From positions 1,920,001-1,984,000 of the forward strand of contig OZ220732.1 of NCBI GenBank assembly GCA_965116905.1: 64,000 bases of DNA. Reading direction: 5' to 3'. A program made the position numbers and the translations under genes. Shown in pieces: positions 6,718 to 52,233 of the stretch (position 1 is its first letter; each line of letters starts with the position of its first letter). The DNA comes from Longimicrobiales bacterium. GTDB lineage: Bacteria > Gemmatimonadota > Gemmatimonadetes > Longimicrobiales > Gaopeijiaceae. The notes under the pieces were generated by a model. The model was not told where the DNA came from, ran no database searches, and worked only from the letters and a program-made list of their open reading frames with translations.

Positions 6718-7802
6718 GGGTCGGCGTCCTCGGCGGCGGGCAACTGGCCCGCATGCTCGCGCTGGAAGGCATCCCGCTCGGGCACCGGTTCACCTTTCTG
6801 GAGCCGGCCCCCGACCCGCCCGCCGCCGCGCTCGGCGAGGTCGTGGACACGGCATACGACGACCCGGCGGGCCTCGCGCGGATCGCGGCGGCCACCGATG
6901 TCGTCACTTACGAGTTCGAAAACGTGCCCGGGGCCGCAGCCGCCTATCTTGCGGCCCGGCTGCCGGTGCTGCCCCCGCCGCCGGCGCTGGAAGCCACGCA
7001 GGACCGGCTGGTCGAGAAGCGACTGTTCCGGGAGCTGGGGATCCCGACCGCCCCGTTCCACCCCGTCGACACGCGCGACGACCTGGACCCCGCCCTCGCC
7101 ATCGCCGGCTTGCCCGCCGTGTTCAAGACGCGGCGATTCGGCTACGACGGCAAGGGGCAGGCCGTCGTACACTCGGCCGAAGAAGCCGCGGCGGCCGTTG
7201 CCACGCTGGGACCCGGTCTCATCGCGGAGGGCTTCGTCGGATTCTCGCGGGAACTCAGCGTCCTCGGCGTCGGCGCCCGCGACGGCGGCCGGGTCTTCTA
7301 CCCGCTGACCGAGAACCGCCACCGCGACGGGATCCTGCGGGTCAGCCGGGCACCGGCGCCGGGGGTGACGCCGGAGCTCCAGGCCCGTGCGGAGGGACTC
7401 GCCGCGCGCGTCATGGACCGGCTCGGCTACGTCGGCGTGCTCGCCATCGAACTGTTCCAGGTCGGCGACCGGCTGATGGCCAACGAAATGGCGCCGCGCG
7501 TGCACAATTCCGGGCACTGGACCCTGGACGGAGCCAGCGTCAGCCAGTTCGAGAACCACGTCCGGGCGGTCACCGGACTTGCCCTGGCGGAACCGCGCGT
7601 GCCGGGCCCCGCCGCCATGGTCAACATCATCGGCGAACCCCCGGATCCGGCCGACGTCGCCGCACTGCCGTTCGCGCACCTTCACCTCTACGACAAGGCG
7701 CCGCGCCCGGGGCGCAAGCTGGGCCATGTGAACATCACGGGCCCGTGCGAAGACGAGGTCGCGGAGGGCGTCCAGCGGGTCCGTGAAATGCTGACCGGAT
7801 AG
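6714..7802 (+). CDS. purK: N5-carboxyaminoimidazole ribonucleotide synthase
   Basis: [36 protein letters not shown]; overlaps purE stop by 4 nt. Confidence 0.97.
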
Positions 7803-8878: not shown

Positions 8879-8987
8879 TCCTACACCCCGCCGTCGCCGG
8901 CCCGCGGGGGTCGGAGGCGAATGGGAGGGATCCCGGCGGGGACGCTGTTTGACAGGCCCGAAAACAACCAGAGTTGCGAAATAGATC

Positions 8988-11081
<2,094 letters not shown>

Positions 11082-11117
11082 TGCCGCCGCACACACCTCA
11101 ATCTCAACGGGGGTAGA

Positions 11118-12308
<1,191 letters not shown>

Positions 12309-12353
12309 GCGATCATGGCAGCGAACCCCGGCTCGGCTGGAGGGCAGCAAGGG

Positions 12354-12662
12354 ATGACGAACAGGATACGGATTCGCCTGAAGGCGTTCGATCACTGGGT
12401 GGTGGATCAGACGGCCGCCGACATCGTGCGCACGGCGCAGAAGACCGGTGCCAGGATCCGCGGACCGATTCCCCTGCCGACTCGCCGCCAGCGCTGGACG
12501 GTGCTGAGGTCGCCTCACATCGACAAGAAGAGCAGGGAGCAGTTTGAACTCAGGACGCACAAGCGTCTGATCGACATCGTCGAAAGCCGCCCTCAGACCA
12601 TCGACGCGCTGACCAAGCTGGATCTTCCGGCGGGTGTGGACGTCGAGATCAAGGTGGACTGA
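12354..12662 (+). CDS. rpsJ: 30S ribosomal protein S10
   Basis: [30 protein letters not shown]. Confidence 0.98.
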
Positions 12663-37284: not shown

Positions 37285-37964
37285 CGGCCACTCCGCCCCC
37301 GGAGACGCGGCCACGTGAGCGGCTTCAGCGCCACGGGCCCGGCCCCCTCTCCGAGCAGGAGCTTCTCGCGCTGGTGATCGGTTCCGGAAGCGCGGCGATG
37401 CCCGCACACCGTCTGGCCGAGCGGGTACTCGACCTGTCCGGGGGACGGCTTCGGGACCTGGCTCGGGTCGACCCGGGCATTCTGGTCGGCATCCCGGGAA
37501 TCGGCCCGGCCATGGCCGCGAGGATCGTCGCGGCCATCGAACTGGGCAAACGCGTGGGGTCCGCCCGCTCCCGTCACGAGGATCCCATATCGGGGCCTGG
37601 AGATGTGCACGACATCTTTGCGCCCGCTCTGGCCCACCTCGCGCACGAGGAATTCCACGTTCTGCTGCTCAACGCCCAGAACATCGCGATCTGCCAGCGG
37701 CAGGTCACGCGGGGCATTCTCGACGCGTCCCTCATCCATCCCCGCGAGGTCTTCCGCGATGCGATCGTTCTCAGGGCGGCGGGCCTGATCCTGGTGCACA
37801 ACCATCCGTCGGGGAATCCGGAGCCTTCCGCAGAGGACCTCAAGGTGACACGGCAGCTGAGCGTTGCGGGAGACCAACTGGGCATCCCGGTCCTGGACCA
37901 CATTATCGTGGCGGGAGGGACGTTTTCGTCGCTTGCGGGGCGGGGCTGTCTGCGGGGACCTTGA
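37260..37964 (+). CDS. radC: RadC/UPF0758 JAB-domain protein
   Basis: RPRERL, HhH GIGPA, HPREVF, HNHPSG, DHII; start uncertain. Confidence 0.93.
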   Translation: MLLPSGGIAATPPPETRPRERLQRHGPGPLSEQELLALVIGSGSAAMPAHRLAERVLDLSGGRLRDLARVDPGILVGIPGIGPAMAARIVAAIELGKRVGSARSRHEDPISGPGDVHDIFAPALAHLAHEEFHVLLLNAQNIAICQRQVTRGILDASLIHPREVFRDAIVLRAAGLILVHNHPSGNPEPSAEDLKVTRQLSVAGDQLGIPVLDHIIVAGGTFSSLAGRGCLRGP

Positions 37965-38001
37965 AGGGGGTTCCGATAACGATCCGATCCGGAGGGGTGC
38001 A

Positions 38002-39909
38002 TTGAACGGGACCAACCCGGCGCGGCGGGAGCGCATCCCCGTTCGCGTCATGAAGGATCATGACGCTATCGCGGCCGAGGTGGCCGGGCGCATCTCGGCG
38101 CTCATGCGGCAGCGTGCCAAGGAGGGCCGCGATGTCGTGCTCGGGCTCGCGACGGGCTCGACGCCCGTGGGCGTCTACCGCGAACTGATTCGGCTGCACC
38201 GCGACGAAGGGCTCGACTTCTCCAACGTCGTCACCTTCAACCTCGACGAGTACTACCCGATGCAGCCTGGCAGCATCCACAGCTACCATCGCTACATGCG
38301 GGAGAACCTCTTCGAGCACGTCAACATCTGTCCCGATCGCTGCCACATACCCCGTGGTGACCTGGCCGGAAAGGAGGTGGAGGCTCACTGTCGCGACTTC
38401 GAGCGCCGCATTCGGGCTGCCGGAGGCATCGACCTGCAGATTCTGGGCATCGGTCGCACAGGTCACATCGGCTTCAACGAACCCGGGTCGGCCCGCCGTT
38501 CGCGCACGCGGCAACTCTACCTCGACACGGTCACGCGGGCCGACGCCGCGGCCGATTTCTTCGGCGAGGAAAACGTGCCGCCGCAGGCGATCACCATGGG
38601 GGTTGCGACCATTCTGGAGGCCCGCGAAGTCGTGCTGCTGGCTACTGGCGAACACAAGGCCGCGATCGTGCGTCGCGCCGTCGAGGGCGAGGTTCATGCC
38701 GATGTGGCCGCTACGTTCCTGCAGCAGCACCCGGCCTCGACCGTCTATCTGGATCCCGCGGCGGCTGCGGATCTCACACGGATCCGCACGCCCTGGCTGG
38801 TCGGAGATGTTGAATGGACGCCCCACTGGGAGACCGAGGCGGTGGTCTGGCTCAGCCAGCGCACCGGCAAGCCCATCCTCCACCTGGCCACCGACGACTA
38901 CCGGGAGCACCACCTCGGGTCGCTGGTGTCGCGATATGGGTCGGCCGAGCCGCTCAACGGGGAGGTCTTCAATACCCTGATCGCCAAGATCCGCGGCAAG
39001 AGTCGACTGCCGCGCGGCCAGAGGATGCTGGTTTTCTCGCCGCACCCCGACGACGACGTGATCTCGATGGGAGGGCTGCTGCGGAAGCTCACGGAGAACG
39101 GCAACCACGTTACCGTCGCCTACCAGACGTCGGGGAACATCGCCGTCTTCGACCACGAGGTGCGGCGCTACCTGGACTTCATGCGCAGGACGGCCAGGGT
39201 GATCGACCTTGGGGACAGGGAAGTCCTGGAGGACGTCTTGAGGTCCGTGGAGGAGGATCTTGCCGGGAAGGAGCCCGGTGACGTCGATTCCGCCGTCGTG
39301 CAGGATCTGAAACGGATCATCCGCGAGAGCGAGGCGTCGGCGGGCATTGCCGAACTGGGCCTGTCCACCGATCACGCGCGCTTCCTCAACATGCCGTTCT
39401 ACCAGACGGGGGAGGTCAGGAAGGATCCGATCTCGGAGGCCGACGTGCAGATCGTCGTCGGCCTGCTGGAGGAAGTGCGTCCGACGATGGTGTTCGCCGC
39501 GGGCGACCTGTCCGACCCGCACGGAACCCACCGCATGTGCCTGGAGGCGGTCGAGCGTGCACTCGCGCGCTACGGCGGCGACCCGCCCTGGCTCTGGCTG
39601 TATCGCGGCGCCTGGCAGGAGTGGAGCGTGAACGAGGCGACGGTGCTCGTACCGCTTTCGGACGGCGAGATGCGCGCCAAGGTGCAGGCGATCTTCCGGC
39701 ACGAGTCGCAGAAGGATTCGGCTCCCTTCCCCGGTCCGGACGACCGCGAGTTCTGGCAGCGTGTGGTCGACCGCAACCGGGGGACGGCGGACCTGCTTCA
39801 GTCACTGGGACTGCCCGCGTATCGTGCCATGGAGGCGTACGTGACGTTGCGGGCGGGGTGCCGGGTGGAGGCGCAGGAGATTCCGACATCGTCGCTGGCG
39901 GAGAAGTAG
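38002..39909 (+). CDS. nagB: glucosamine-6-phosphate deaminase fused to PIG-L-like deacetylase domain
   Basis: GLATGSTP, FNLDEY, GHIGFNEPG; C-terminal SPHPDDDVISMGG and DPHGTH; TTG start after GGAGG. Confidence 0.93.
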   Translation: MNGTNPARRERIPVRVMKDHDAIAAEVAGRISALMRQRAKEGRDVVLGLATGSTPVGVYRELIRLHRDEGLDFSNVVTFNLDEYYPMQPGSIHSYHRYMRENLFEHVNICPDRCHIPRGDLAGKEVEAHCRDFERRIRAAGGIDLQILGIGRTGHIGFNEPGSARRSRTRQLYLDTVTRADAAADFFGEENVPPQAITMGVATILEAREVVLLATGEHKAAIVRRAVEGEVHADVAATFLQQHPASTVYLDPAAAADLTRIRTPWLVGDVEWTPHWETEAVVWLSQRTGKPILHLATDDYREHHLGSLVSRYGSAEPLNGEVFNTLIAKIRGKSRLPRGQRMLVFSPHPDDDVISMGGLLRKLTENGNHVTVAYQTSGNIAVFDHEVRRYLDFMRRTARVIDLGDREVLEDVLRSVEEDLAGKEPGDVDSAVVQDLKRIIRESEASAGIAELGLSTDHARFLNMPFYQTGEVRKDPISEADVQIVVGLLEEVRPTMVFAAGDLSDPHGTHRMCLEAVERALARYGGDPPWLWLYRGAWQEWSVNEATVLVPLSDGEMRAKVQAIFRHESQKDSAPFPGPDDREFWQRVVDRNRGTADLLQSLGLPAYRAMEAYVTLRAGCRVEAQEIPTSSLAEK

Positions 39910-39978: not shown

Positions 39979-40143
39979 ATGTCAGAGTGTCCCGTATGTG
40001 CCGGAGAAGTCGAGATCTCTCCCGACCCCGTGGAAGGAGAGTTGCTGGAATGCGACGAGTGCGGCGTCGAACTCGAGATTCTGGCCCTGAAACCCCTAAC
40101 GCTCGGGGAGGCTCCCGAAGCGGAAGAGGATTGGGGGGAATGA
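39979..40143 (+). CDS. lysW: LysW/ArgW amino-group carrier protein (54 aa)
   Basis: [54 protein letters not shown]: two CxxC plus diagnostic C-terminal EDWGE; GAGGAG RBS; not in ORF track. Confidence 0.97.
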
Positions 40144-40985
40144 GGGTAGGCTTCCTTCATTCCCTGATCCGGAAGGACGAGAAGCTCCTGATCGCGGAAC
40201 TCCGGAAGCGGGACGACATGGAGCTGGTCTTCCTGGACGACCGCAAACTCGTCCTGGACCTTGGGCACGCCCCCGAAGTCGACATCGTGCTGGAGCGGTC
40301 GATCAACCATTCGCGAGCCATGCACGCGTTGCGCCTCTTCGAGGGCGCGGGCACGCGGTGCGTCAACACCTATGAAGTCGCGCGCCGGTGCGGGGACAAG
40401 ATCCTCACCGCCGTGTCGCTGCAGGAGAGCGGGGTGCCTCAGCCCGAGGTGCGCGTCGCGTTTACGCCCGAGTCGGCGCTGGTGGCGATCGAGGAGCTGG
40501 GCTACCCGGCCGTGCTCAAGCCGGCGGTCGGTTCGTGGGGCCGCCTGCTGTCGAAGATCAACGACCGGGACGCGGCGGAGACCGTGCTCGAGCACAAGTC
40601 CATCCTGGGCAGCTACCACCATTCGATCTTCTTCGTGCAGGAGTACGTGGAGAAGAACGGCCGCGACATCCGCGCATTCGTGGTCGGCGACCAGTGCGTC
40701 GCGGCGATCTACCGCTCGTCCGAGCACTGGATCACCAACACCGCCCGGGGCGCCCGCGCCACCAACTGCCCCGTGACCGTCCCCCTCGCCGAGATGGCCC
40801 TGCGCGCTGCGGACGCGGTCGGCGGCGGGGTCCTTGCGGTCGACCTCTTCGAGACCGCGGACGGCCTCCTGGTCAACGAGGTCAACTACACGATGGAGTT
40901 CCGCAACAGCGTCGACGTCACGGGGGTGAACATCCCCGAGCGCGTCGTGTCCTACGTGGCGGCGGCCGGATCGTCCCGCCCATGA
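40140..40985 (+). CDS. lysX: LysW--alpha-aminoadipate ligase (ATP-grasp, RimK family)
   Basis: [42 protein letters not shown] overlaps lysW stop. Confidence 0.95.
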
Positions 40986-42004
40986 TCCGGGTCGCGATCG
41001 CGGGGGGCTCCGGCTATGCCGGCGGCGAGCTGTTACGGCTGCTCACTGCGCACCCCGATGCGGACGTCGTCCAGATCACGTCGGAACGACTGGCCGGCAA
41101 GCTCGCGCACCGTGCCCACCCCAATCTGCGCGGCAACACGCGGCTCCGCTTCCGCACCCTCGGCGAACTGAACGAGTGCGACGTCCTCTTTTCCTGCCTG
41201 CCGCACGGCGAGTCCGCGCGTCGTATCGACGACTTCCGCCGCATCGCTCCCCGCGTGATCGACCTCGGCGCCGACTTCCGCCTGGGCGATGCCACCGAAT
41301 ACGAGCGCTTTTACGGGAGCCAGCACCCCCGCCCCGACCTGCTTGGCCGATTCGTCTACGGGATCGCGGAACTGAACCGGGACGCACTCGCCCATGCCGA
41401 CCTGGTGGCGTGCGCCGGTTGCAACGCGACGGCCGCGATCCTCGCGCTTCGTCCCTTGTACCTGGAGGGAGTGGCGGACTCGGCGGTGGTCGAGGTGAAG
41501 GTCGGCTCGAGCGAGGCCGGCAACCGCCCGACGCCCGGGAGCCACCATCCCGAGCGGAGCGGCGCCATGCGCTCGTACAAGCCCACCGGGCATCGCCACC
41601 TGGCCGAGATTCGCGCCGCGCTAGGGGGAGACATTCACTTTTCGGCGACCGCGGTCGAGATGGTGCGGGGTGTCCTCGCCACCTGTCACGCATTCGTGAA
41701 CCGCGACCTCGACGACAAGGCGCTGTGGCGGATCTATCGGAAGGCCTACGCCTCCGAACCCTTCGTCCGAATCGTCAAGGAACGCGCCGGGATCCATCGG
41801 TACCCGGACCCCAGTCTGCTTGCGGGCTCGAACTACTGCGATGTCGGATTCGAGCGCGATCCGCTGGCCGGACGCGTCGTGGTGGTGAGCGCGATCGACA
41901 ACCTCATGAAGGGAGCGGCCGGGCAGGCGGTGCAGGCCTTCAACGTGATGCATGGTCTTCCCGAGACCCGTGGGCTGGAGTTCCCCGGCCTGCACCCGGC
42001 CTGA
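40982..42004 (+). CDS. lysY: [LysW]-aminoadipate 6-phosphate reductase (ArgC family)
   Basis: [45 protein letters not shown]. Confidence 0.93.
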
Positions 42005-42011
42005 CCGGCCG

Positions 42012-42749
42012 ATGTGCCGCCTGTTGTGCGTTCAGGGCCGCGAGGCCTTCGAGATGGCGGGTCACCTCGATGCGTTCGCAGCCGTCGCCAGAGACTGCCG
42101 TGAGTATCAGGGTCACGGCTGGGGATGCGCGTGGCTCGACCGCGGCGTGTGGCGGCTCCACCACGATATCGCACCGATCTGGGAGGATTCCTGGAGGCCG
42201 CCGGGCCGGACGAAGCTGCTCGTGGCTCATGCGAGAAGCGCGTTCCGCGACGAGGGAATCCGCGTGGAGAACAATATGCCGTTCACCGACGGAGAACGCG
42301 TGTTCGTCTTCAACGGCGAACTCCACGGCGTGAGGATCAAGGAGCGGGGCCGAATCGGCGCCGAGAAGGTGTTCAACTTCGTCAAGCGCTTCGATCGCGG
42401 AGATTTCGGGCTGGCGCTGCAGCGGGGACTCGGGGTGATCGAGAAGCGCACCCGCCACGTGCGTGCAATGAACCTGATCGTGGCCGACCGGTCGGCTCAG
42501 GTTCACGTTGCGATGAACTTCCGGGAGGATCCCGAATACTTTCAAATGCACACTGCGGAATCGGACGGTTTCCGGATCGTCTGCTCCGATCCCTATCCCG
42601 AGTCCACCGGGCGCCGCCCGTCCGAGGCGTCCGGCGGGTTGCCCGAGCCCTTTGCGCCCGAAGCCCATGCGGGGGCGGCCGTGGCGTGGGTTCCCCTGCG
42701 GAAGGGTGAGGTGCTGACCTTCAACCGCGAACCGTCCGGCCAGCGATGA
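42012..42749 (+). CDS. class II glutamine amidotransferase / Ntn-hydrolase (EgtC/DUG3/YafJ-like)
   Basis: N-terminal M-C-R (Cys nucleophile), HGWG, AHARSA, ENNMPF, FNGEL motifs. Confidence 0.88.
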   Translation: MCRLLCVQGREAFEMAGHLDAFAAVARDCREYQGHGWGCAWLDRGVWRLHHDIAPIWEDSWRPPGRTKLLVAHARSAFRDEGIRVENNMPFTDGERVFVFNGELHGVRIKERGRIGAEKVFNFVKRFDRGDFGLALQRGLGVIEKRTRHVRAMNLIVADRSAQVHVAMNFREDPEYFQMHTAESDGFRIVCSDPYPESTGRRPSEASGGLPEPFAPEAHAGAAVAWVPLRKGEVLTFNREPSGQR

Positions 42750-42762
42750 ATGGAGTGACAAG

Positions 42763-43554
42763 GTGCTGCTCGTAAAGATCGGCGGCGGTGAGTCAATCAA
42801 TCTGGCGGGCATCGCCAGCGACCTTGCCGATGTCGATGATTCCGTCTGCATCGTCCACGGGGCCAACGCGCTTCGTGACGACCTGGCGCGGCGGCTGGAG
42901 GTGGACAAGCAGGTTCTGACCTCCGTTTCGGGTTACACCAGCGTGTACACGGACGAGAAGCTCATGGACGTGATGCTCATGGCCTACTCGGGGCTCCGCA
43001 ACAAGCGCCTGGTGGAGCTGTTGCAGAGGCACGGGGTGAATGCGGTGGGACTTACCGGCCTGGACGGTGCTCTCGTTCGCGGCACGCGCAACAAGGGCAT
43101 CCGCGTGCGGCAGGGTGGGAAGACCCTGATCAAGCGGGATCTGTCGGGCAAGCCGGTCACGGTGAACGGGCAACTGCTCCGGCTCCTGCTGGACAACGGC
43201 TACACGCCGGTCGTGACCGTGCCGGTGATCGACGAAAACAGTTTTGCCATCAACTCGGAAAACGACGACGTCGTCGCCGCGTTGAATACGGTGCTGAAGG
43301 CGAGCATAGTGGTGCAATTGATCGAGGCGCCCGGCATCCTGGAGGACCGTCACGACCCCGGATCCCTGATCCGGCGCATCCCGCGTGGCGAATTGGCCGA
43401 TCGGGAGAAGCGTGTGGCTGGCCGCATGAAACGCAAGCTGCTGGCGCTCAGACGGCTCACCGAAGAGTCGTCGACGCAGGTGGTGGTGGCGGACGGACGC
43501 CGCGAAAAGCCGCTGACGGATGCGCTGGCCGGCGAGGGGACCGTGATCCTGTGA
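42763..43554 (+). CDS. lysZ: [LysW]-aminoadipate kinase (ArgB family)
   Basis: VKIGG, IVHGAN, TSVSGYTSVYTD, GLTGLDG, GRMKRKL. Confidence 0.93.
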   Translation: MLLVKIGGGESINLAGIASDLADVDDSVCIVHGANALRDDLARRLEVDKQVLTSVSGYTSVYTDEKLMDVMLMAYSGLRNKRLVELLQRHGVNAVGLTGLDGALVRGTRNKGIRVRQGGKTLIKRDLSGKPVTVNGQLLRLLLDNGYTPVVTVPVIDENSFAINSENDDVVAALNTVLKASIVVQLIEAPGILEDRHDPGSLIRRIPRGELADREKRVAGRMKRKLLALRRLTEESSTQVVVADGRREKPLTDALAGEGTVIL

Positions 43555-44747
43555 GCACACGCGCGGACCGGCCCGGCAAGGCAGTTCCCGAGCCTCGGGA
43601 CGCGCAGGCGACCGAGCGCGCCTATGGGCTTGAAGTCTATCCCAAGCGTGACCTTACAGTCGTCAGGGGAAGGGGAGCGGAGGTCTGGGACGACAACGGC
43701 CGCCGCTACATCGACTGCGTCGCTGGGATCGGGGTGGCAAGTGTCGGACACGCCAACGCTGCGGTCGCCGCGGCCGTGGCCGAACAGGCGCGAACGCTTG
43801 TGACCTGCCCCGGGATCTTCTACAACGACACGCGCGCGCGTCTGCTGGAGAAGCTGGCCGAGGTGGCCCCCGAAGGCCTCTCACACGCCTTTCTTTGCAA
43901 CTCGGGAACCGAGGCGATCGAGGCGGCGTTCAAGTTCGCGCGCATCGTGACGGGACGCGTCGGAGTCGTTTCGACCATGCGTGGGTTTCACGGCCGGACG
44001 CTCGGGGCCCTCAGCGCGACGCACAGGAAGGACTACCGGGAGCGGTTCAAGCCCCTCGTCCCGGGCTTCTCGTTCGTGCCGTTCAACAATGTGGACAAGC
44101 TGCGCGCGGCGGTGAGCGAAGCCACGGCGGCGGTGGTGATCGAGCCCATCCAGGGGGAGGGGGGAATCCGTCCCGCAAACGCGGAGTTCCTCCATGCGGC
44201 GCGCGAGGCATGCGATGAAGCGGGCGCCCTCCTGATCTTCGACGAGATCCAGACCGGCTTTTGCCGTACGGGCAGGATGTTCGCGTGCGAGCACTACGAG
44301 GTGACGCCGGACATCCTGTGCCTCGCCAAGGCGATGGGCGGCGGAGTGCCGATCGGGGCGGTGCTCGCGGTCGACCGGGTCAGCCCGCCAGTCGGCAAGC
44401 ACGGCACCACGTTCGGCGGGAATCCGCTCGCCTGCGCGGCCGCCCTGGCCGCGATCCGGTTCATGGAGGATGAGCGGTTGGCGGAGCGGGCGGCACGTCT
44501 CGGCACCCGCTTCCGCACACGGTTCGAGCGGCACTCGCCCGCTCGCGTGCGGGCGCTTCGTCAGGTCGGTCTGATGATCGGCGTCGAACTGCGCGAACGC
44601 TGCGTGCCGTACCTCAAGGCGCTGATGGAGCGAGGCGTGCTGGCGCTGCCGGCTGGAAAGACCGTGATCCGCGTGCTGCCGCCGCTGGTGATCAGCGAGG
44701 AGCAGATCGACGAAGTCGTGGACACGCTGGTTGACGTATTGGCCTAG
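43551..44747 (+). CDS. lysJ: [LysW]-aminoadipate semialdehyde transaminase (ArgD family, PLP)
   Basis: [44 protein letters not shown]. Confidence 0.92.
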
Positions 44748-44827: not shown

Positions 44828-46849
44828 TCAGCGACCGGGCCTGAAGCCGTCGACCTCCTCCAGGGCGCCCAGCGCGAAGAGCGGCGCCCAGCTCTGGAAC
44901 CGATGCCCGCGCCCTGCGCCCGTCCGGGAATCGAAGTTCTCGCGGCACATTCCCGTGCTGGCGCGGTCGGCGAGAAACATGCGGGCGCCCTTCCAGGCAA
45001 GGTCGTGGGCGAGGTCGTCGAAGCCGTACCGGCGGAGGCCCTGCAAGACAAGGTAGTTCATGGGGGGCCAGATCGAACCGCGCCAGTACTGCTGGTCATC
45101 GAAGGCGGGGTCGTCCCGCGAGATCGTGGGCAGCACCCACTCGCCCCAGAAGCGTGCCGGGTCGCGCAGTACGTCGACCATGAGCCGGGCGCGGCGCCGT
45201 GAAGGCACGCCCGCGACGAGGGGGAGGAAGTTCGACGCGGCCACGCGCGGCGACTGGCCCAGGGGGAGTTCGTCCAGGTACATGCCGGCCCTCTCGGACC
45301 AGAGGGCCGCGTTCATCGTCCTTGCGAGGTCGTGGCGCATGTCTTCCAGTCGCCGTGCGGTCGGGCCGTCGTCCAGGATGTGCGCAATGCGTGACAGGCA
45401 CTCGAGGTCGAGGGCACGGTAGCTGCAAAGGTCGACCGCCGACATCGCGAGGACCTGCCGCTCCGGATCCCACTCGGCCTCGTCCCAGAGGGGCAGATCG
45501 TCCTGGCCCGATTCCCACGCCGCGCGCTGGTGGCCGCTCGCTCCCGCTTCCCACTCGGGGACCTGCTGGGGCGGCGGAACCAGCGCCGTATCGGAACCCC
45601 ACGAAAACAGGCCCGGGGTGAGCCCTTCGCGGCGGGGCCGCCCGTTTTTCTCCGCCACCCACCACTCGCACCACGTGAGGAGGTCGGGGTACACGGCGGC
45701 GAGCCTGCCGCGGTCGGGGTGGGCCTGGTGCAGACGCAGTGCCGCGTAGGAGCCGATGGGCGGTTGCGAGCGGTCGGGTGTGCCCGCGTGGCGGCTGCGC
45801 CAGTTCGGGACGCAGCCGTTGGGGTATCGGGACCGAAGGCCAGCCAGGAGGGTGCTCCATGCGAGCTCCCGCGACACGGTCGCAAGTTCGAGGGCGTTGA
45901 AGAAGCTGTCCCACCCAAAGACGGTCCAATCATCGGGTTGCGGGGTGGTGGGCGCCGCTGGGTGTTGGCGGGTCGACTCGGCGGCGGCGCCTGGCCGAGG
46001 AAAGATCCACCGGCGGCCCGCCGGAGCGTACAGCCGTCCGGTCTCGGGCTGAAGCAAAACCGTCCACATGAGGTTGTCGGCGATGCTCTCGAGCAGATCG
46101 GGGTGGCCCACCGCCCGGGGCCGCCGCCGCCCCCACTCGCCGCGCGCCTCGTCGATCCAGGCATCCGCCTGGTCGACCAGCCGCGCGGCTCGGGCGGCGG
46201 CCCCGGCCCCTCCCCACGCGGCCACCATCACCAGACGCCCGGTCGCGCCATCCACGATGTCGAGGACGCGCGCCACCTCTCCGGCGCGCAGCGGCACGGC
46301 CGACGCGTCGCCGGGCGCGAGGCGCCGCCCCGCGCCCGGCGCGAACGCGGTGGCGATGTCCACGCTCCCGCACCGGGTCCGCCAGCCGTTCACGGGCGCC
46401 GTGCCCTTGGCGACCGCAATGGCCCGGCCGTCGCCCTGTCCCTGTCCCTCCCCCTCCTCCATCTCCATCCAGCGCGGCTTCCAACTCCAGGGGGCATCCC
46501 CGATGAGCTCCAGCCGGCCCGGGGCCCTGGCCGTGACGCGCAACGCCACCGCGTTCCCGCCGCACGACCATTCCAGTACCAGGGTGCTCGATCGAGGCGC
46601 CGAAGCGGGCGACGCCTCCGCGCTCAGGTCGAACTCCATGCGCGCGTACGACCCGTCGGGCGCGTGGGGCCCGACCCGCGTGACCATCCAATACCAGTCG
46701 CCGTGATCGCGGCGGCGTCCCTCGGGATCGGTGAAGGCGAGACGAACGGCTGCGCCCTCGTTCGGACCCGCGGCAAGGACCAGGCCGGCCCAGCGGGACG
46801 CTTCCAGCGCACCGACCGACAGACCTGTCTCTGGAATCGGTCTCGCCAT
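44828..46849 (-). CDS. GH63/MGH1-like (alpha/alpha)6 glycoside hydrolase
   Basis: WDSFF, RSQPP, ESGQDD, YWRGSIWPPMNYL, ENFD motifs. Confidence 0.8.
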   Translation of the reverse strand: MARPIPETGLSVGALEASRWAGLVLAAGPNEGAAVRLAFTDPEGRRRDHGDWYWMVTRVGPHAPDGSYARMEFDLSAEASPASAPRSSTLVLEWSCGGNAVALRVTARAPGRLELIGDAPWSWKPRWMEMEEGEGQGQGDGRAIAVAKGTAPVNGWRTRCGSVDIATAFAPGAGRRLAPGDASAVPLRAGEVARVLDIVDGATGRLVMVAAWGGAGAAARAARLVDQADAWIDEARGEWGRRRPRAVGHPDLLESIADNLMWTVLLQPETGRLYAPAGRRWIFPRPGAAAESTRQHPAAPTTPQPDDWTVFGWDSFFNALELATVSRELAWSTLLAGLRSRYPNGCVPNWRSRHAGTPDRSQPPIGSYAALRLHQAHPDRGRLAAVYPDLLTWCEWWVAEKNGRPRREGLTPGLFSWGSDTALVPPPQQVPEWEAGASGHQRAAWESGQDDLPLWDEAEWDPERQVLAMSAVDLCSYRALDLECLSRIAHILDDGPTARRLEDMRHDLARTMNAALWSERAGMYLDELPLGQSPRVAASNFLPLVAGVPSRRRARLMVDVLRDPARFWGEWVLPTISRDDPAFDDQQYWRGSIWPPMNYLVLQGLRRYGFDDLAHDLAWKGARMFLADRASTGMCRENFDSRTGAGRGHRFQSWAPLFALGALEEVDGFRPGR

Positions 46850-46929
46850 ATTGGTGGGAAAGGTCGTGTACGGGCGGCTTCGGCGCTATTCTTCATTGGA
46901 GTTGATGTTTGGCCCGTGGTGCAACGGAG

Positions 46930-48963
46930 ATGCTGATGGCTGTTGCGACGGACGATGTAGCGACCAGCGCCCTGACGCTGCCCGAGGAGCTCATCCTGAT
47001 GCTCCTCAACGAGGAGAACGGCTACTTCCACCAGGTGCCCGGCTGGCGGCTGAACTGCGCCGTTGTCGGCGCGGTGCTCGCCGAACTCTCGCTGCTCTCG
47101 CGGATCGACACGGACCTGGAGTCCCTGTTCCTTGTCGACTCGGAGAAAACGGGTGACCCTGCCCTGGACCCCATTCTGGAGGAAATCGCGGGCGAATCGG
47201 TGCAGCACAACGCGCAGTACTGGATCGAACGGCTGGCCCACCGTGCCGAGTCCGTCATCGACCTGACCCTCGACCGTCTGGTCGAACTGAAGATCCTGGA
47301 ATACCACGACGGCGATTTCTGGACGGTGGCTCGTACCGTCGTGCACTCGGACATGTACGGCGACCCCGAGGAGGACACGGCTGGGCAGTTCATCAAGACG
47401 CGGATCGGCAAGGCGATCTTCACCGACGCGATTCCGGACCCGAGAGACGTGATCGTCATTTGTCTCGTCAATACCTGCGATGTCTTCCGGTTCATGTTCC
47501 AGCTCGACGACGATGCCGAGGACCGCATCGAGTTCATTTGCAAGATGGATCTGATCGGCCGCTCGATCGCCGCGGCGGTCATGCAAAACGTCGCGGGGCC
47601 ACTGCTTCGGCGTTCCCGCCTGAGCAAGCACATTCCGCGCGTCGCCATGCGCAGGCTGCTGCTCAATTCCAACTTGCGCACCGGTAATCTTCCCGCGCTC
47701 TTTGCGGATCTCGCCAAAGAGTATGGCCCCGTGTACCAGATCCGTCCGCCGCTCAGGAAGCCCATGGTCTTCCTTGCGGGAACCGAGGTCAACCGCTGGA
47801 CGAATCGGCACGGGCGGATGCACCTGAGAACGAGGGACTACTTCGCCGATTTCGAGAAGGTCTACGGTGCATCCGGCGTCTTGCCCTCTCTGGACGGCGC
47901 GGACCATTTCCGGCTTCGCAAGGCCCTGGCGCCGGCATACTCGCGCCGGAGACTCGCGGATCAGGTGGACCAGCTTCTCCACCATAGCCGGACGCACATG
48001 GCCGAATGGCGGGCCGGTGACACCGTCTCCGCGACGAAGATGTGTCGGCGCCTGATCAACGCGCAGATTTCGCCGATGTATGTCAGCGTGGACTCGCAGG
48101 ACATCTTCGACGACATCGCGACATACAAGGAACGGGCGCTCAACGTTCACATCACCAAGGCCCTGCCCGGGTTCATGCTGAAGACTCCGGGAATGAAACG
48201 GCGGGCCAAGGCCGTGGATACGCTTCTGGCACGCATCCAGAGTGTTCATACGCCCGCGCAGCGAGCCGGGTGCCCGCGGAACCTCGCGGATGATCTGCTG
48301 AGCCTCAATGCGAGCGATCCGCAGTTCGTTCCGGAGTCGAACCTGCGTTTCGCGCTGTCCGCGGCGCTGATTGCCAGCGTGTACCTGGGCGACGCGTTCA
48401 GCTTTGTGGTCTACGCGATGGCGTCCAGGCCGGACGACTACGCGAGGATCCGGAGCGAAGCCGACGCTCTGTTCGGCGACGGCGATCCGGTTGGCGACGA
48501 CTTCACGCCATCCGCGTTGGACTTCACCCACCGCTTCCTCATGGAATGCCTGCGGATGTACCCGATTGTCCCGATGTCCATGCGCACCGTCATGAATGCG
48601 TGCGTGGTCGAGGGCTACGAACTGCCGGTGGGTACGACAATCCTGATCGCGCAGACGGCCCCGCACTTCATGGAAGACGTCTTCCGGGACCCGTTCACAT
48701 TCGATGTGGACCGCTATCGGGCTCCGCGTAATGAGCACCGGGGTCACGGGTATGCACCCTACGGCCTGGGCACGCACAGGTGTCTCGGCTTCCGCTGGAT
48801 GGAGCTGCAGTTGGCCATCAACGCCCTGATGGTCGCGCACTACTTCACGGTCAAGGTGTCCCCGGAGAACTTCAGGTTCAGGTTCAATCCCTTCCCGTCG
48901 ATGAAACCGAGCAAGAAGCTGAAGTTCCGCATCGCGGAGCAGGTGCGGGAACTGCCGGGCTAA
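46930..48963 (+). CDS. cytochrome P450 fused to N-terminal GPP34/GOLPH3-like domain
   Basis: N-term LTLPEELILMLL...GAVLAELSLLSRI...TGDPALD (GPP34-like); C-term ExxR (ECLR), FDVDRY, heme ligand PYGLGTHRCLG. Confidence 0.85.
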   Translation: MLMAVATDDVATSALTLPEELILMLLNEENGYFHQVPGWRLNCAVVGAVLAELSLLSRIDTDLESLFLVDSEKTGDPALDPILEEIAGESVQHNAQYWIERLAHRAESVIDLTLDRLVELKILEYHDGDFWTVARTVVHSDMYGDPEEDTAGQFIKTRIGKAIFTDAIPDPRDVIVICLVNTCDVFRFMFQLDDDAEDRIEFICKMDLIGRSIAAAVMQNVAGPLLRRSRLSKHIPRVAMRRLLLNSNLRTGNLPALFADLAKEYGPVYQIRPPLRKPMVFLAGTEVNRWTNRHGRMHLRTRDYFADFEKVYGASGVLPSLDGADHFRLRKALAPAYSRRRLADQVDQLLHHSRTHMAEWRAGDTVSATKMCRRLINAQISPMYVSVDSQDIFDDIATYKERALNVHITKALPGFMLKTPGMKRRAKAVDTLLARIQSVHTPAQRAGCPRNLADDLLSLNASDPQFVPESNLRFALSAALIASVYLGDAFSFVVYAMASRPDDYARIRSEADALFGDGDPVGDDFTPSALDFTHRFLMECLRMYPIVPMSMRTVMNACVVEGYELPVGTTILIAQTAPHFMEDVFRDPFTFDVDRYRAPRNEHRGHGYAPYGLGTHRCLGFRWMELQLAINALMVAHYFTVKVSPENFRFRFNPFPSMKPSKKLKFRIAEQVRELPG

Positions 48964-49053: not shown

Positions 49054-52000
49054 ATGAGCGGGAACTCGAGCAATCACGGAGAACCTGGCGGCCCCATAGC
49101 CTATATGGCGAGCAACGGCGTCGCCGCCAATCTGCTCATGTTCGGGATCATTGCAGCGGGTCTGGTGTCGCTGACCGGTCTCGAGCAGGAGGGATGGCCC
49201 GAGGTACCCTTCAACCAGTTCGAGATCTCCGTGCCCTTCCCCGGCGCAACGCCCGAGGAGGTCGAGGAGGCCATCGTCGTCAAGATCGAGGACGAGGTCA
49301 GGGGACTCGCCGATGTGAAGGCAGTCAGGTCCATAGCCGCGCCCGGGATGGCGTCCGTCAGGGTCGAAGTCAACTCCGGTACGGACATGGGCGCCAAGAA
49401 AGACGAGATCGAGTCGGCGGTCGGGCGCATTCAGACGTTTCCGAGCGGAGCCGAGCGGCCCCAGATACGCGAGATGACCAACGCCCAGAGCGTGATTCGC
49501 CTGATTGTCTACGGCGACGTTCCCGAGCGCTCACTGAAGGAGCTCGCGTACCGGATCGAAGACGACCTCGCCGCGCTTCCCTCCGTCTCCCAGGTCGCGA
49601 CCAGCGGAGTGCGCGACTACGAGGTCTCGATCGAAGTGCCGCAGCAGCGTCTCAGAGCTCTCGGCCTGACCCTGACCGATATCGCGAACACGGTTCGCCG
49701 CAACTCGCTGGATTTGTCGGCGGGCAGCATCGATACCCGGGAGTCCCAGGTGCGGGTGCGCACACTGGGCCAGAGTTACGACCAAATGGATTTCGAGGAA
49801 ATCGTCATCCTCAGCCGGGACGACGGCACGGTCGTGCGCCTGGGTGATATCGCCGAAGTGCGTGACGGTTTTCAGGACACGGATCTGATCGTGCGGCATC
49901 AGGGCCGGCCCGCAGTCTTCGTCGAGGTATCCCGGGCGCAGGGCGAAAGGGTCATGAGCGTGGCGCGTGCCGTCAGGGAGCACATAGCCGACGAGGTGAT
50001 CCCCTCCCTTCCCAACGGCGTGGGCGTGACCATCTGGAACGACGACTCCACGGCGTTCACGGAGCGTGGCGCCCTCCTCCTCAAGAACGGGGCTCTGGGG
50101 CTGCTGCTGGTGTTGATCGCGCTGGGTCTTTTTCTGGAAGTCCGGCTGGCCTTCTGGGTAGCCGTCGGCCTTGGCGTTTCGGGGATCGGCGCCCTGGCCG
50201 CCATGATGATGTTCGACATCGCGATCCACGCTGTCTCGCTCTTCTCTTTCGTGCTCGCCATCGGAATCATCGTGGACGATGCGATCGTCGTTGCCGAACA
50301 TATCCATCTGGAACGAATGCGAGGCACATCCGGTGTCGTCGCCGCGATCCGTGGTGCGCGGCGGATCAGGGTGCCGCTGATCTTCGCGGTGCTCACCACC
50401 ATCGTTGCGTTCGTGCCCCTGCTCTTCATTCCCGCGGGGTTCGGAGAAGTCTGGAAGGCGCTGCCCATCATCGTCATCGCCATGCTGGTGATCTCACTGA
50501 TCGAATCGCTGCTGGTGCTGCCGAACCACCTGTCGCACCATCTGCACGGCCCCGATTGGACGCCCCGAACGGGCGCGGAACGGTTCGTCGCCCGCATCCA
50601 GGGTCGGGTCGATTCCCTGCTGGACCGTTTCATCCAGGGTCCCCTGGATCACGCGATGCGGTTCGCGACCGATCAACCCGGCGTAACGCTCTCCGCGGCT
50701 GCCGCCCTCTTCATTCTGACCGTTTCCCTGCTGCCGGCGGGCATCGTACCAACCACCTTTGCGACCGAGGTCGAGGGGGACTTCGTAACCGCCACCCTTC
50801 AGATGCCGGACGGAACCACCGCGCGGCAGACGGACGCGGTGGCACAGGACCTGGAAGCGGCCGGTCACAGGGTCATCCAGCGTCTCTCCGAGGGCCGGCC
50901 CGCGGATGCGCCTCCGCTTCTATCCGGCGTTACGGTCGTCGTTGGTCAGCGGTCGCGGATCGAGACTGGTGGTCTCAACCCCTCGCCCACCCTGAATCCC
51001 GAAGCCAATATCGCCACCATCGAGTTCAAGCTCCTGCCCGCGCAGCAGCGACGCATCACTTCGGGAGAAGTCATGCAGGCCTGGCGTGAGGAAGTGGGTA
51101 TCCTGCCCCAGGTGCGCGCGATCACCTTCATGAGCGAGATCTACACGCTGGGCAACCCGGTGGAGGCCGTGCTGTCCCATCCGGATCCGGAGCGCCTGGT
51201 GACGATCGCGTCATCCATGGTCGATGAACTCCGTCGAGTGGCGGGGGTCTTTGACATTCGCTCGGATCACACGCCCGGCGTCCCGGAGATTCAGCTGGGA
51301 CTGTTGCCCGAGGCACGAACCCTCGGCCTGACGCTCGACGCCCTGGCCCAGCAGGCGAGAGCCGTCTTCTTTGGGGCGGAGGCCCTGAGGGTGCAGCGGG
51401 GCCGCGACGAAGTCCGCGTCTACGTCCGGCTGCCCGAGGAGCAGCGCAACTCGATCACCGATATCGAGAACTACCTGTTCCGTACGGCAACCGGCGCCGA
51501 GGTGCCGGTGAGCCGTGTGGCTTCACTGAGTATGGGCATGTCGCCGCCGGCCATCCATCGCCAGGACGGCCAGCGCGTCGTCACGGTCACCGCCGATGTG
51601 GACCCGAATGTGATTACCGCCGGGGAAGCCAATGGCATCCTGGAAAACACCATCATCGCAGGACTGGTCGATACGAACCCCGAACTGACCTATACCTTCG
51701 GCGGCGAACAGCAGCAGCAGCTCGACTCTCTGGGCGCGCTCTACCGCGGTTTCGCGATCGCGTTGCTGATCATCTTCGCGCTGCTGGCCATTCCGCTGCG
51801 TTCCTATACCAAGCCGTTCATTATCATGGCCATCATTCCGTTCGGGTTCGTCGGCGTGATCCTGGGCCACTGGGTCCTGGGAGTGGCGTTGAGCGCGGAG
51901 TCCTTTGTCGGGATATTCGGCCTGGCGGGCGTGGTGGTGAACGATTCCCTGGTCATGATGGACTTCATCGATCAGGAACTCGAGGAGGGCCTGCCCGCGC

Positions 52001-52233
52001 GCGAGGCGATCATCGAGGGAGCCAAGGGCCGTTTTCGTCCGATCATGCTGACTTCCCTGACCACCTTCCTCGGCTTCACGCCGCTGATTCTCGAGGACGC
52101 GATTCAGGCCCAGTTCTTCGTCCCCTTCTCCGCCTCGATCGGGTGCGGCATCCTCTTCACCACGGCCATACTGATGTTCCTGGTGCCCGCGCTGTCCTCG
52201 CTGCGCCTGCACTTGACCACCCGGAATTCCTAG
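49054..52233 (+). CDS. RND-family transporter permease (AcrB/AcrD/AcrF-like)
   Basis: 1059 aa; PGATPEEVE, IGIIVDDAIVVAE, GVVVNDS, RFRPIMLTSLTT. Confidence 0.93.
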   Translation: MSGNSSNHGEPGGPIAYMASNGVAANLLMFGIIAAGLVSLTGLEQEGWPEVPFNQFEISVPFPGATPEEVEEAIVVKIEDEVRGLADVKAVRSIAAPGMASVRVEVNSGTDMGAKKDEIESAVGRIQTFPSGAERPQIREMTNAQSVIRLIVYGDVPERSLKELAYRIEDDLAALPSVSQVATSGVRDYEVSIEVPQQRLRALGLTLTDIANTVRRNSLDLSAGSIDTRESQVRVRTLGQSYDQMDFEEIVILSRDDGTVVRLGDIAEVRDGFQDTDLIVRHQGRPAVFVEVSRAQGERVMSVARAVREHIADEVIPSLPNGVGVTIWNDDSTAFTERGALLLKNGALGLLLVLIALGLFLEVRLAFWVAVGLGVSGIGALAAMMMFDIAIHAVSLFSFVLAIGIIVDDAIVVAEHIHLERMRGTSGVVAAIRGARRIRVPLIFAVLTTIVAFVPLLFIPAGFGEVWKALPIIVIAMLVISLIESLLVLPNHLSHHLHGPDWTPRTGAERFVARIQGRVDSLLDRFIQGPLDHAMRFATDQPGVTLSAAAALFILTVSLLPAGIVPTTFATEVEGDFVTATLQMPDGTTARQTDAVAQDLEAAGHRVIQRLSEGRPADAPPLLSGVTVVVGQRSRIETGGLNPSPTLNPEANIATIEFKLLPAQQRRITSGEVMQAWREEVGILPQVRAITFMSEIYTLGNPVEAVLSHPDPERLVTIASSMVDELRRVAGVFDIRSDHTPGVPEIQLGLLPEARTLGLTLDALAQQARAVFFGAEALRVQRGRDEVRVYVRLPEEQRNSITDIENYLFRTATGAEVPVSRVASLSMGMSPPAIHRQDGQRVVTVTADVDPNVITAGEANGILENTIIAGLVDTNPELTYTFGGEQQQQLDSLGALYRGFAIALLIIFALLAIPLRSYTKPFIIMAIIPFGFVGVILGHWVLGVALSAESFVGIFGLAGVVVNDSLVMMDFIDQELEEGLPAREAIIEGAKGRFRPIMLTSLTTFLGFTPLILEDAIQAQFFVPFSASIGCGILFTTAILMFLVPALSSLRLHLTTRNS

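Follow-up and report, generated by a model that had tools for sequence, protein, structure and literature searches.

How does an operon for LysW-mediated amino acid synthesis release its product when the enzyme known for that step is absent? The question is raised by a six-gene operon in a 64,000-nucleotide stretch of a Longimicrobiales genome (the whole stretch analysed, hereafter the window). The established release enzyme, LysK, is a metal-dependent M20 carboxypeptidase, the [LysW]-lysine/ornithine hydrolase, which reads the amino-acid side of the amide; it is represented by profiles TIGR01902 and NF003367 and found in Thermus, Deinococcus, Sulfolobales, and Thermococcales. To our knowledge, the final step of LysW-mediated lysine or ornithine synthesis is known solely as an M20 metallopeptidase reaction. 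In the operon considered here, an unnamed gene lies between lysY and lysZ:

39979–40143, plus strand: lysW (TIGR01206, 55.9 bits, cut-off 53.2; PF21344)
40140–40985, plus strand: lysX, ATP-grasp ligase (TIGR02144, 336 bits, cut-off 275.6; aligned to 3VPD)
40982–42004, plus strand: lysY, LysW-acyl-phosphate reductase of the ArgC family (TIGR01850, 377 bits, cut-off 233.6)
42012–42749, plus strand: unnamed putative Ntn cysteine hydrolase of the class II glutamine amidotransferase fold, 245 aa (predicted model, conservation, and context)
42763–43554, plus strand: lysZ, [LysW]-aminoadipate kinase (NF010659, 237 bits, cut-off 223)
43551–44747, plus strand: lysJ, class III aminotransferase, last gene of the operon (best match NF042418)
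44828–46849, minus strand: GH63/MGH1-like gene, next after lysJ

The lysW/lysX, lysX/lysY, and lysZ/lysJ pairs each overlap by 4 nt, and the hydrolase gene is separated from lysY by 7 nt and from lysZ by 13 nt. The tight order lysW-lysX-lysY-orf-lysZ-lysJ of the preliminary description, with adjacent genes overlapping or at most 13 nt apart, stands, as do its gene names, which HMM searches uphold, and its placement of the following gene on the other strand. LysW is a 54-aa acidic zinc-ribbon amino-group carrier (17 D/E versus 1 K/R) with the C-terminus EDWGE; viral contigs yielded three lone lysW-like genes and nothing else. LysJ scores 476 bits with NF042418, below the cut-off of 700, and 445 with the argD subfamily profile TIGR00707, above the cut-off of 410. 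LysY is the sole ArgC homolog of the genome (tblastn on the genome, no paralog) and LysZ its sole ArgB-type kinase, the remaining AA_kinase matches being PyrH-like and aspartokinase-like. The lysZ gene starts with GTG, preceded by GGAG. A longer hydrolase reading frame starting at 41952 was ruled out because M1-C2-R3 is invariant in 106/106 aligned relatives. A scan for promoters and terminators gave no signal above shuffles, and the one sponge metatranscriptome that contains the stretch is uninformative on operon transcription, since its contig depth is DNA-like and flat over genes of both strands.

Predicted fold and active site of the hydrolase

The assignment of the inserted gene to the class II glutamine amidotransferase-fold Ntn hydrolases, proposed initially from its translation, was borne out: EgtC is the closest solved fold of the predicted model (pLDDT 84; E 2.8e-12; Z 24.7, rmsd 2.2 Å, 202 residues), and the N-terminal Cys is invariant. 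The model aligns to EgtC, GlmS, and PurF at Z 19–25, which predicts a four-layer alpha-beta-beta-alpha fold. Profile scores are weak, with 17.9 bits for GATase_4 (cut-off 23) and 26.7 bits for the EgtC profile TIGR03442 (cut-off 218.65), for which the best E among 106 family members is 2e-15; the profile search gave no M20 or TIGR01902 match at this gene. The family, which comprises approximately 2,900 unnamed 90%-clusters, presumably also resembles Dug3-type GATase_4 proteins.

The key residues are Cys2, Arg75, Asn101-Gly102, and Gly116. C2, R75, and N101 are invariant in 106/106 aligned members and G102 and H73 are conserved in at least 90%, with R75 and N101 lining up with their GlmS counterparts; in the class II amidotransferase fold, Asn-Gly forms the oxyanion hole and the H-x-R arginine is a conserved feature. 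Gly116 is likewise invariant (106/106), and its column, as matched by sequence and helix position, holds the Asp of the T-D-S/T-E motif in 7/7 ordinary class II proteins, including GlmS of this genome, and in 3MDN. That Asp binds the alpha-amino group of free glutamine, although no paper on its role was found in the literature searched; its replacement by Gly fits a substrate in which the glutamate is peptide-linked.

EgtC (PDB 4ZFJ/4ZFK/4ZFL; TIGR03442) is a gamma-glutamyl-hercynylcysteine sulfoxide hydrolase. Both it and the protein described here are stand-alone Ntn hydrolases with an MCR start and G-W-G, P-x-W, and R-S-A motifs, whereas identity is only about 18%, the score is far below the TIGR03442 cut-off, the loop before the motif is about 10–15 residues shorter, Gly replaces the motif Asp, and the proposed substrate is a protein C-terminus. 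Furthermore, LysW-pathway genes rather than an egtABCDE cluster surround the hydrolase gene in the window and in 80/80 close loci (the best 80 of 117). According to the available text of PMC9103826, EgtC cleaves a gamma-glutamyl group off an amide other than glutamine.

The glutaminase domains of GlmS and PurF and the YafJ-type GATase_4 proteins (1XFF, 1ECB, 1TE5, 3MDN) share the fold (Z 19–22), the N-terminal Cys, H-x-R, and N-G, but carry T-D-S/T-E where this family has I-G-A/S-E/Q, and the hydrolase has no synthase domain. The shared fold and catalytic residues would also suit a conventional YafJ/Dug3/EgtC-like enzyme, a glutaminase or gamma-glutamyl hydrolase for small molecules, supplying glutamate or ammonia and leaving LysW untouched; one source labels a family member "predicted glutamine amidotransferase," and another member, L195, stands alone with no lys gene within 7 kb. 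We regard this explanation as very improbable: no reaction of the LysW pathway draws on glutamine nitrogen, every family member carries a substitution at the conserved Asp, and the absence of LysK would be left unexplained. Nor is there a synthase partner, since no synthase domain is fused or adjacent to the gene in the operons read, where the neighbours are LysW-pathway genes. Two apparent fusions of the hydrolase (P0172 and P0228) were discounted, since a frameshift that lets translation run on into lysY or lysZ probably accounts for them.

Gene neighbourhood and distribution relative to LysK

Among the closest loci (the best 80 of 117), which according to their record titles come from Gemmatimonadota, Acidobacteriota, Gamma- and Alphaproteobacteria, Binatia, and one actinobacterium, the hydrolase gene adjoins lysY or lysZ in 80/80; lysY immediately precedes it in 78, and lysZ-lysJ follow it in 79. 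Such conserved flanks indicate that the arrangement is not due to chance. In a distant clade of about 30% identity, sampled as the best 80 of 245 loci, which are metagenomic and partly redundant, the gene directly follows lysJ in 74/80 loci, and 5 of the 6 others have less than 320 nt upstream; 25 of these 80 show a homocitrate-synthase-like gene in view. The position after lysJ is the slot of lysK in genome G126 and in Deinococcus. Genes resembling those for homocitrate synthase, aconitase, and dehydrogenases are present in many of the family's operons and amount to a full lysine set. The upstream NagB-PIG-L fusion was rejected as a release enzyme, for it flanks only 42/80 close loci (best 80 of 117), all from Gemmatimonadota.

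The preliminary description had reported no M20 peptidase in the operon or the window, and indeed none of the 17 Peptidase_M20 matches of the genome falls within the window. The search for a true lysK, which it had called for, gave at best 64 bits with TIGR01902 (cut-off 163) in this single-contig genome, which is 97.4% complete, and a true LysK used as query found at best a 32% match over 181 residues. LysK was likewise found in 0/41 relatives and in 0/50 operon-carrying genomes.

The anticipated anti-correlation takes the form of a strict either/or in all 63 LysX-bearing genomes of 2 phyla: 45 carry the hydrolase gene, 18 carry LysK, none has both, and none has neither. Within Gemmatimonadota, LysX occurs in 30/301 genomes, 28 of which have the hydrolase gene beside LysX and no LysK (0/28), and the other 2 have LysK above the cut-off; the 271 genomes without LysX contain no strong match to the hydrolase. 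Within the phylum of genome G041, by record title Acidobacteriota, LysX occurs in 33/301 genomes, 17 with the hydrolase gene and 16 with LysK, without overlap. A third phylum searched for independent LysK operons, that of genome G061, has LysX in 1/401 genomes, namely G061 itself. The sampled LysK operons represent one to three clades, and the number of changes between hydrolase and LysK is 1 on the LysX+LysY, LysZ, and LysJ trees, 2 on the LysY tree, and 3 on the LysX tree; with only 1 to 3 independent swaps, the Fisher p of 9e-10 for the either/or pattern is an overstatement.

Proposed release reaction and carrier termini

From the genomic context and the either/or distribution, we infer that the hydrolase acts on LysW-gamma-lysine or -ornithine. 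The EgtC-fold cysteine hydrolase encoded at 42012–42749 probably takes the place of LysK and frees the end product, lysine in the most likely case, from the C-terminal Glu of LysW; the original reading of an Ntn hydrolase as a LysK substitute on LysW is supported by the absence of lysK, the either/or pattern, and the EgtC-like fold. LysX would load 2-aminoadipate onto the gamma-carboxyl of Glu54 of LysW, and LysZ, LysY, and LysJ would convert the adduct to LysW-gamma-lysine, as is established for the Thermus homologs. Removal of the Met, which we infer, would expose Cys2 for attack on the gamma-amide carbonyl, stabilised by the Asn101-Gly102 oxyanion hole; once lysine had left, attack of water on the gamma-glutamyl thioester would regenerate free LysW. 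The enzyme would read the glutamyl side of the amide, with Arg75 holding the terminal alpha-carboxylate of LysW and the exchange of the usual Asp for Gly116 leaving space for the peptide-bonded alpha-nitrogen. Ornithine would be freed as readily if LysX loaded glutamate. The proposed reaction, the operon partners, and the slot after lysJ in the distant clade are as for LysK, whereas the folds are unrelated, the nucleophile is an Ntn cysteine rather than a metal site, family members measure about 215–245 aa against about 350 aa for LysK, and the 2 enzymes never occur together among the 63 LysX-bearing genomes.

The carrier itself varies in its last residue. LysW ends in Gln in 21/111 operons with the hydrolase gene and in 0/18 with LysK, a contrast that is non-significant over all dereplicated rows (18/100 versus 0/18, p 0.07); the tree holds 10 E/Q changes, all outside the LysK clade. 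Of the 120 LysW proteins nearest in sequence, counted without reference to gene context, 59 end in WGQ. Because gamma-amide cleavage chemistry would also strip ammonia from a terminal Gln, the hydrolase probably also activates Gln-ended carriers in relatives. The same association could point to an accessory amidase for carrier maintenance, which would convert the terminal Gln of LysW to Glu or remove misloaded or stalled adducts, with product release left to a general M20 peptidase of ArgE/DapE type encoded elsewhere in the genome. Generic M20 proteins are present in the genome, one of which, ArgE/DapE-like with 205 bits against a cut-off of 218, could act on LysW, and the available text of PMC12998189 describes overlapping activities of T. 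thermophilus LysK and ArgE-type enzymes. We nevertheless consider an accessory role improbable: 90/111 hydrolase operons, this one included, keep the gene despite a Glu-ended LysW; co-occurrence with LysK would be expected somewhere, yet is seen in 0/63 genomes; and 3 operon-bearing genomes (G377, G385, and G415) have just one or two M20 candidates, none at E 1e-22.

Product of the pathway and significance

The LysX specificity signature F180-I190-T201-N256/S257 reads F-I-T-NS, which in the available text of PMC12998189 is that of the aminoadipate-preferring T. thermophilus LysX type. Among 76 readable close loci in the alignment, 59 have F-I-T-NS, 17 have F-V-T-NS, and none has an ArgX-type signature. 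As far as that source describes the T. thermophilus LysW/AmCP lysine pathway, LysW, LysX with the same five-residue signature, LysZ, LysY, and LysJ are common to both systems; here, in contrast, LysK is missing, the gene order differs, no homocitrate synthase or homoaconitase lies within the operon, and relatives have Gln-ended carriers. Elsewhere in the genome, lysA, dapB, dapF, and asd score above cut-off, and no homocitrate synthase comes near it: a LeuA/HCS-like protein reaches 189 of 414 bits, similarly scoring synthases occur in relatives without the operon, and one aconitase-like and two dehydrogenase-like proteins lie below their cut-offs. A lysine-type LysX thus stands alongside diaminopimelate genes and no clear homocitrate synthase, and the product freed in this genome may be ornithine besides or instead of lysine. 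The genome has argF and argG and no ArgB or ArgC besides LysZ and LysY; argF/argG were rejected as proof of an ornithine role because argG occurs in 4/6 same-genus genomes without the operon or any ArgC. A motif scan of the genome was blank for argJ, ilvC, ilvD, and dapD/L, but the same scan overlooked the HMM-found argG, dapB, and dapF, which makes these blanks weak evidence of absence.

Among 20 genomes with the six-gene cassette, a second ArgC is above cut-off in 10 and below it in 6 more, which, together with the lack of a clear homocitrate synthase, leaves the need for the cassette there unexplained. This pattern would suit a transamidase that passes the LysW-gamma-glutamyl thioester to an amine instead of water, or an operon product other than free lysine or ornithine, and Ntn thioester enzymes are capable of acyl transfer. 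Such a role seems to us highly unlikely, as no extra tailoring gene was found conserved around the cassette and many operons of the family carry the full lysine set.

Release by the hydrolase in place of LysK would be a second, undescribed way of finishing the LysW pathway; the literature searched contained no description of a hydrolase of this fold as a LysW release enzyme. The available text of a Caldithrix abyssi paper points to a LysWXZYJ-Hcs locus, with non-orthologous displacement as a possibility (PMC5317091). Going further, we give even chances to a broader view in which a widespread class II amidotransferase-fold family was retooled for a protein C-terminus and has two tasks: to free lysine or ornithine from the carrier, as a substitute for the non-homologous LysK, and to mature Gln-ended LysW. 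On this view, several uncultured phyla may depend on the hydrolase more often than on LysK for release (45 genomes against 18 in this sample), and the six-gene cassette would have reached sponge symbionts in several phyla, where it might salvage 2-aminoadipate from outside. If the release function is true, the step would offer a clear example of catalysis by two unrelated enzymes, and the glutamyl substrate of this amidotransferase-fold enzyme would be a protein end. Such a function would also explain Gln-ended LysW carriers, give a role to this large unnamed family, and close an apparent gap in the metabolic reconstructions of many uncultured bacteria, which look one gene short of lysine synthesis.

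The LysW operon and the product of its inserted gene

The genome under study is a single contig of 4.2 Mb with a completeness of 97.4%, and the named genomes nearest to it are Longimicrobiales/Gemmatimonadota MAGs. Its LysW operon comprises six co-oriented genes joined by overlaps of 4 nt or separated by gaps of 7 and 13 nt, the compact arrangement reported in the preliminary description, and the gene following lysJ lies on the opposite strand.

LysW operon of the window (gene names from family profile matches)
39979-44747, plus strand: lysW, lysX, lysY, unnamed gene for a 245-aa protein (42012-42749, hereafter the hydrolase), lysZ, lysJ

LysK, the M20 metal enzyme known to release the product from the carrier protein LysW, was sought in the whole genome by profile search. 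No protein scored above 64 bits with the LysK model, whose cut-off of 163 bits was passed in 4 of 14 control genomes, and none of the 17 Peptidase_M20 matches of the genome falls inside the window. The absence of an M20 gene from operon and window, noted earlier from the sequence, was thus borne out, and the genome-wide search that had been recommended returned no true lysK. A true LysK from genome G126, used as the query, found only a 32% match over 181 residues, and the two best LysK candidates are a generic ArgE/DapE-like protein and a YgeY-like protein.

The predicted model of the hydrolase (mean pLDDT 84, built from a 32-sequence alignment) agrees with its initial assignment to the Ntn hydrolases of class II amidotransferase fold. 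EgtC is the top structural match (Foldseek E 2.8e-12; Z 24.7; rmsd 2.2 Å across 202 residues; 18% identity), followed by the glutaminase domains of PurF and GlmS, and residues ~200-220 form a disordered, lineage-specific stretch. Residues M1, C2, R3, G36, W57, R75, P90, N101, G113, and G116 are invariant in all 106 aligned relatives (~25-84% identity); M1 is presumably removed from the mature protein. Matches of the hydrolase and all 106 relatives to GATase_4 and EgtC in Pfam and NCBIfam are sub-threshold only. By membership tests, the protein is neither LysK, EgtC nor a glutamine amidotransferase and belongs to an unnamed enzyme family, for which one search at E 1e-3 gave 2,868 proteins and another at E 1e-10 gave 264 50%-clusters, with the record names seen being "hypothetical protein" or "predicted glutamine amidotransferase."

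The surroundings of the operon are partly shared with relatives. A NagB (glucosamine-6-phosphate deaminase)-PIG-L deacetylase fusion (37864-39909), standing behind secA and a radC-like gene, stops 69 nt upstream of lysW and flanks the operon in 42 of the 80 best of 117 genome loci, all 42 in Gemmatimonadota. On the other side, a minus-strand MGH1/GH63-like glycoside hydrolase gene (44828-46849) converges on lysJ and occurs near the operon in 35 of the same best 80. Beyond it, translations inspected by eye point to an ORF of 684 aa (46909-48963), whose C-terminal part resembles a cytochrome P450 and is preceded by an extra N-terminal domain, and then to an AcrB-like efflux protein (49054-52233).

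Gene order and alternation with LysK

Among the best 80 of 117 genome loci (close loci), lysY lies directly upstream of the hydrolase gene in 78 and lysZ-lysJ directly downstream in 79, one or the other being present in all 80. Record titles place the hosts in Gemmatimonadota, Vicinamibacteria, Gammaproteobacteria, and Binatia, with one alphaproteobacterium and one actinobacterium. A metagenome search with a clade ~30% identical to the window hydrolase recovered a second arrangement: in 74 of the best 80 of 245 loci, which are partly redundant, lysJ is immediately upstream of the hydrolase gene, giving the order lysW-X-Y-(hcs-aconitase-dehydrogenase-like)-Z-J-hydrolase. This order matches the lysW-X-Y-Z-J-K of G126 and of the annotated Deinococcus operon, but the hydrolase stands where theirs has lysK. 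Five of the remaining six loci have less than 320 nt of upstream sequence; the sixth, L195, holds a full-scoring family member (7001-7642; E 2e-70) that stands alone, the 7 kb to its left and right being free of LysW-pathway genes. Neither the 80 close nor the 80 distant loci contain a LysK or M20 match.

Other loci depart from the common layout. The operon of gammaproteobacterial genome G049 is split, with lysW (Gln end)-X-Y-hydrolase at L068:3819-6672 and lysZ on the same contig at a distance of ~2 Mb. Lone lysW-like genes whose products end in EDWGE were found on two IMG/VR contigs (L269:6400-6555 and L271:8001-8141), with no second lys gene detected near them. In Binatia loci L083-L092, a minus-strand cluster (~8900-12600) of three genes, which we take to be EgtB/glycosyltransferase/SelD-type (selenoneine-like), converges on lysJ.

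LysK exceeded its cut-off in none of 41 relatives in the profile search and in none of 50 operon-bearing genomes, those of 50 of the 80 close loci. Of 301 evenly sampled Gemmatimonadota genomes, 30 had LysX, and 28 of these had the hydrolase within ~2 kb on the same contig and no LysK; the other two were predicted to carry LysK, and both do. The 271 genomes lacking LysX yielded five weak hydrolase matches (E ~1e-13), four of which were inspected and are ordinary Asp-bearing proteins. In the phylum of genome G041, where G041 itself had been picked beforehand as a known carrier of one of the counted genes, LysX occurred in 33 of 301 genomes (32 over the cut-off, one truncated at a contig end), with LysK but no hydrolase in 16 and hydrolase but no LysK in 17. 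The anti-correlation with lysK for which a survey had been proposed is therefore present: pooled over both phyla, the 63 LysX genomes divide into 45 with the hydrolase, 18 with LysK, none with both, and none with neither. Each operon type came with its own release candidate and never with the two together. Because the label switches just 1 to 3 times on partner-enzyme trees (FastTree with midpoint rooting, on subsets of 118 and of 51-57 rows), these counts represent few independent events, and the replacement may have run in either direction.

No link between LysW and an amidotransferase-fold hydrolase was found in the open full-text literature. In PMC3249071, LysW and an amidotransferase occupy separate table rows. 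The description of the cultured Caldithrix abyssi (PMC5317091) gives a LysWXZYJ-Hcs locus of eight tags, Cabys_3146-3153, names no LysK there, and suspects non-orthologous displacement; this organism may be a culturable host of the hydrolase gene.

Active-site pocket and carrier ends

The hydrolase was aligned with 7 ordinary class II proteins from the same genomes, including GlmS of the genome under study. R75 aligns with the arginine of their H-x-R motif and N101-G102 with their N-G pair, but G116 takes the place of the Asp of T-D-S/T-E, present in all 7 controls and in 3MDN; in the predicted model, it sits at the start of the same helix. In class II amidotransferases, this Arg binds the alpha-carboxylate of glutamine and the Asp its free alpha-amino group. 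With the Arg retained and the Asp replaced by Gly116, the pocket would suit a glutamate at a protein C-terminus, where the alpha-carboxylate is free and the nitrogen peptide-bonded. Such a pocket would bind the end of LysW for hydrolysis.

Among loci with readable LysW and LysX/LysY, LysW ends in Gln in 21 of 111 hydrolase operons vs 0 of 18 LysK operons (18 of 100 vs 0 of 18 after dereplication, p 0.07). Loci L068 and L094 are examples with a Gln end. Within the G041 phylum, the counts are 8 of 15 vs 0 of 16 (p 0.0008, with no correction for kinship). On the tree, parsimony requires 10 changes between Glu and Gln ends, all of them outside the LysK clade. Carriers from Deinococcus and Streptomyces have a terminal Glu. 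Since LysX requires a free gamma-carboxyl on LysW, Gln-ended carriers must be deamidated. This is within reach of a gamma-amidase that reads the glutamyl side but unlikely for a carboxypeptidase such as LysK. Deamidation is not the sole job of the gene, because LysW of the window, like 90 of the 111, ends in Glu.

Lysine or ornithine as the product

The window LysX bears the signature F-I-T-NS, given in PMC12998189 as that of Thermus LysX, whose preference for aminoadipate over glutamate is at least tenfold. In the distant clade (L134-L213), 10 of 19 readable LysX proteins carry T-I-T-NV, H-I-T-NV, or N-I-T-NV, which match no type in the compared part of Table 1 of that paper. Homocitrate-synthase-like genes are present in many operons of the family, and a separate arg operon exists in some of the hosts; these features argue for lysine as the general product of the family operons.

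The case is less clear in the genome under study. Its asd, dapB, dapF, and lysA exceed their cut-offs; dapA-like and aspartokinase-like genes fall below. Three of its enzymes could be the source of aminoadipate.

Candidate aminoadipate enzymes on the window's contig (all below every family cut-off)
1450773-1452200: LeuA/homocitrate-synthase-like enzyme
925212-927365: aconitase-like protein, single-chain
264918-266282: LeuB-like dehydrogenase

The first, the only protein of its kind in the genome, scores 189 of 414 bits (operon-borne ones, 312-331), and all 14 congeners examined have like-scoring proteins, whether or not they carry the operon. A motif scan, which missed other genes found by HMM, did not find ilvC or ilvD. 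Four gammaproteobacterial genomes with the six-gene cassette (G049, G055, G059, and G070; loci L068, L075, L082, and L093) lack any homocitrate-synthase match at E 1e-45.

Ornithine synthesis is the alternative: the genome has argF and argG, with argR and argH recognized among neighboring ORFs, and no ArgB or ArgC besides LysZ and LysY. PMC11651109 assigns a LysW-glutamate route to ornithine to host-associated relatives from annotation alone. However, argG is kept in 4 of 6 congeners without any ArgC, and a second ArgC passes the cut-off in 10 of 20 other cassette genomes. We rank first lysine made from an outside or yet-to-be-found aminoadipate supply and second a dual use of the cassette for lysine and ornithine. 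The release step is identical for either product, and the hydrolase very probably works in the LysW pathway as LysK does.
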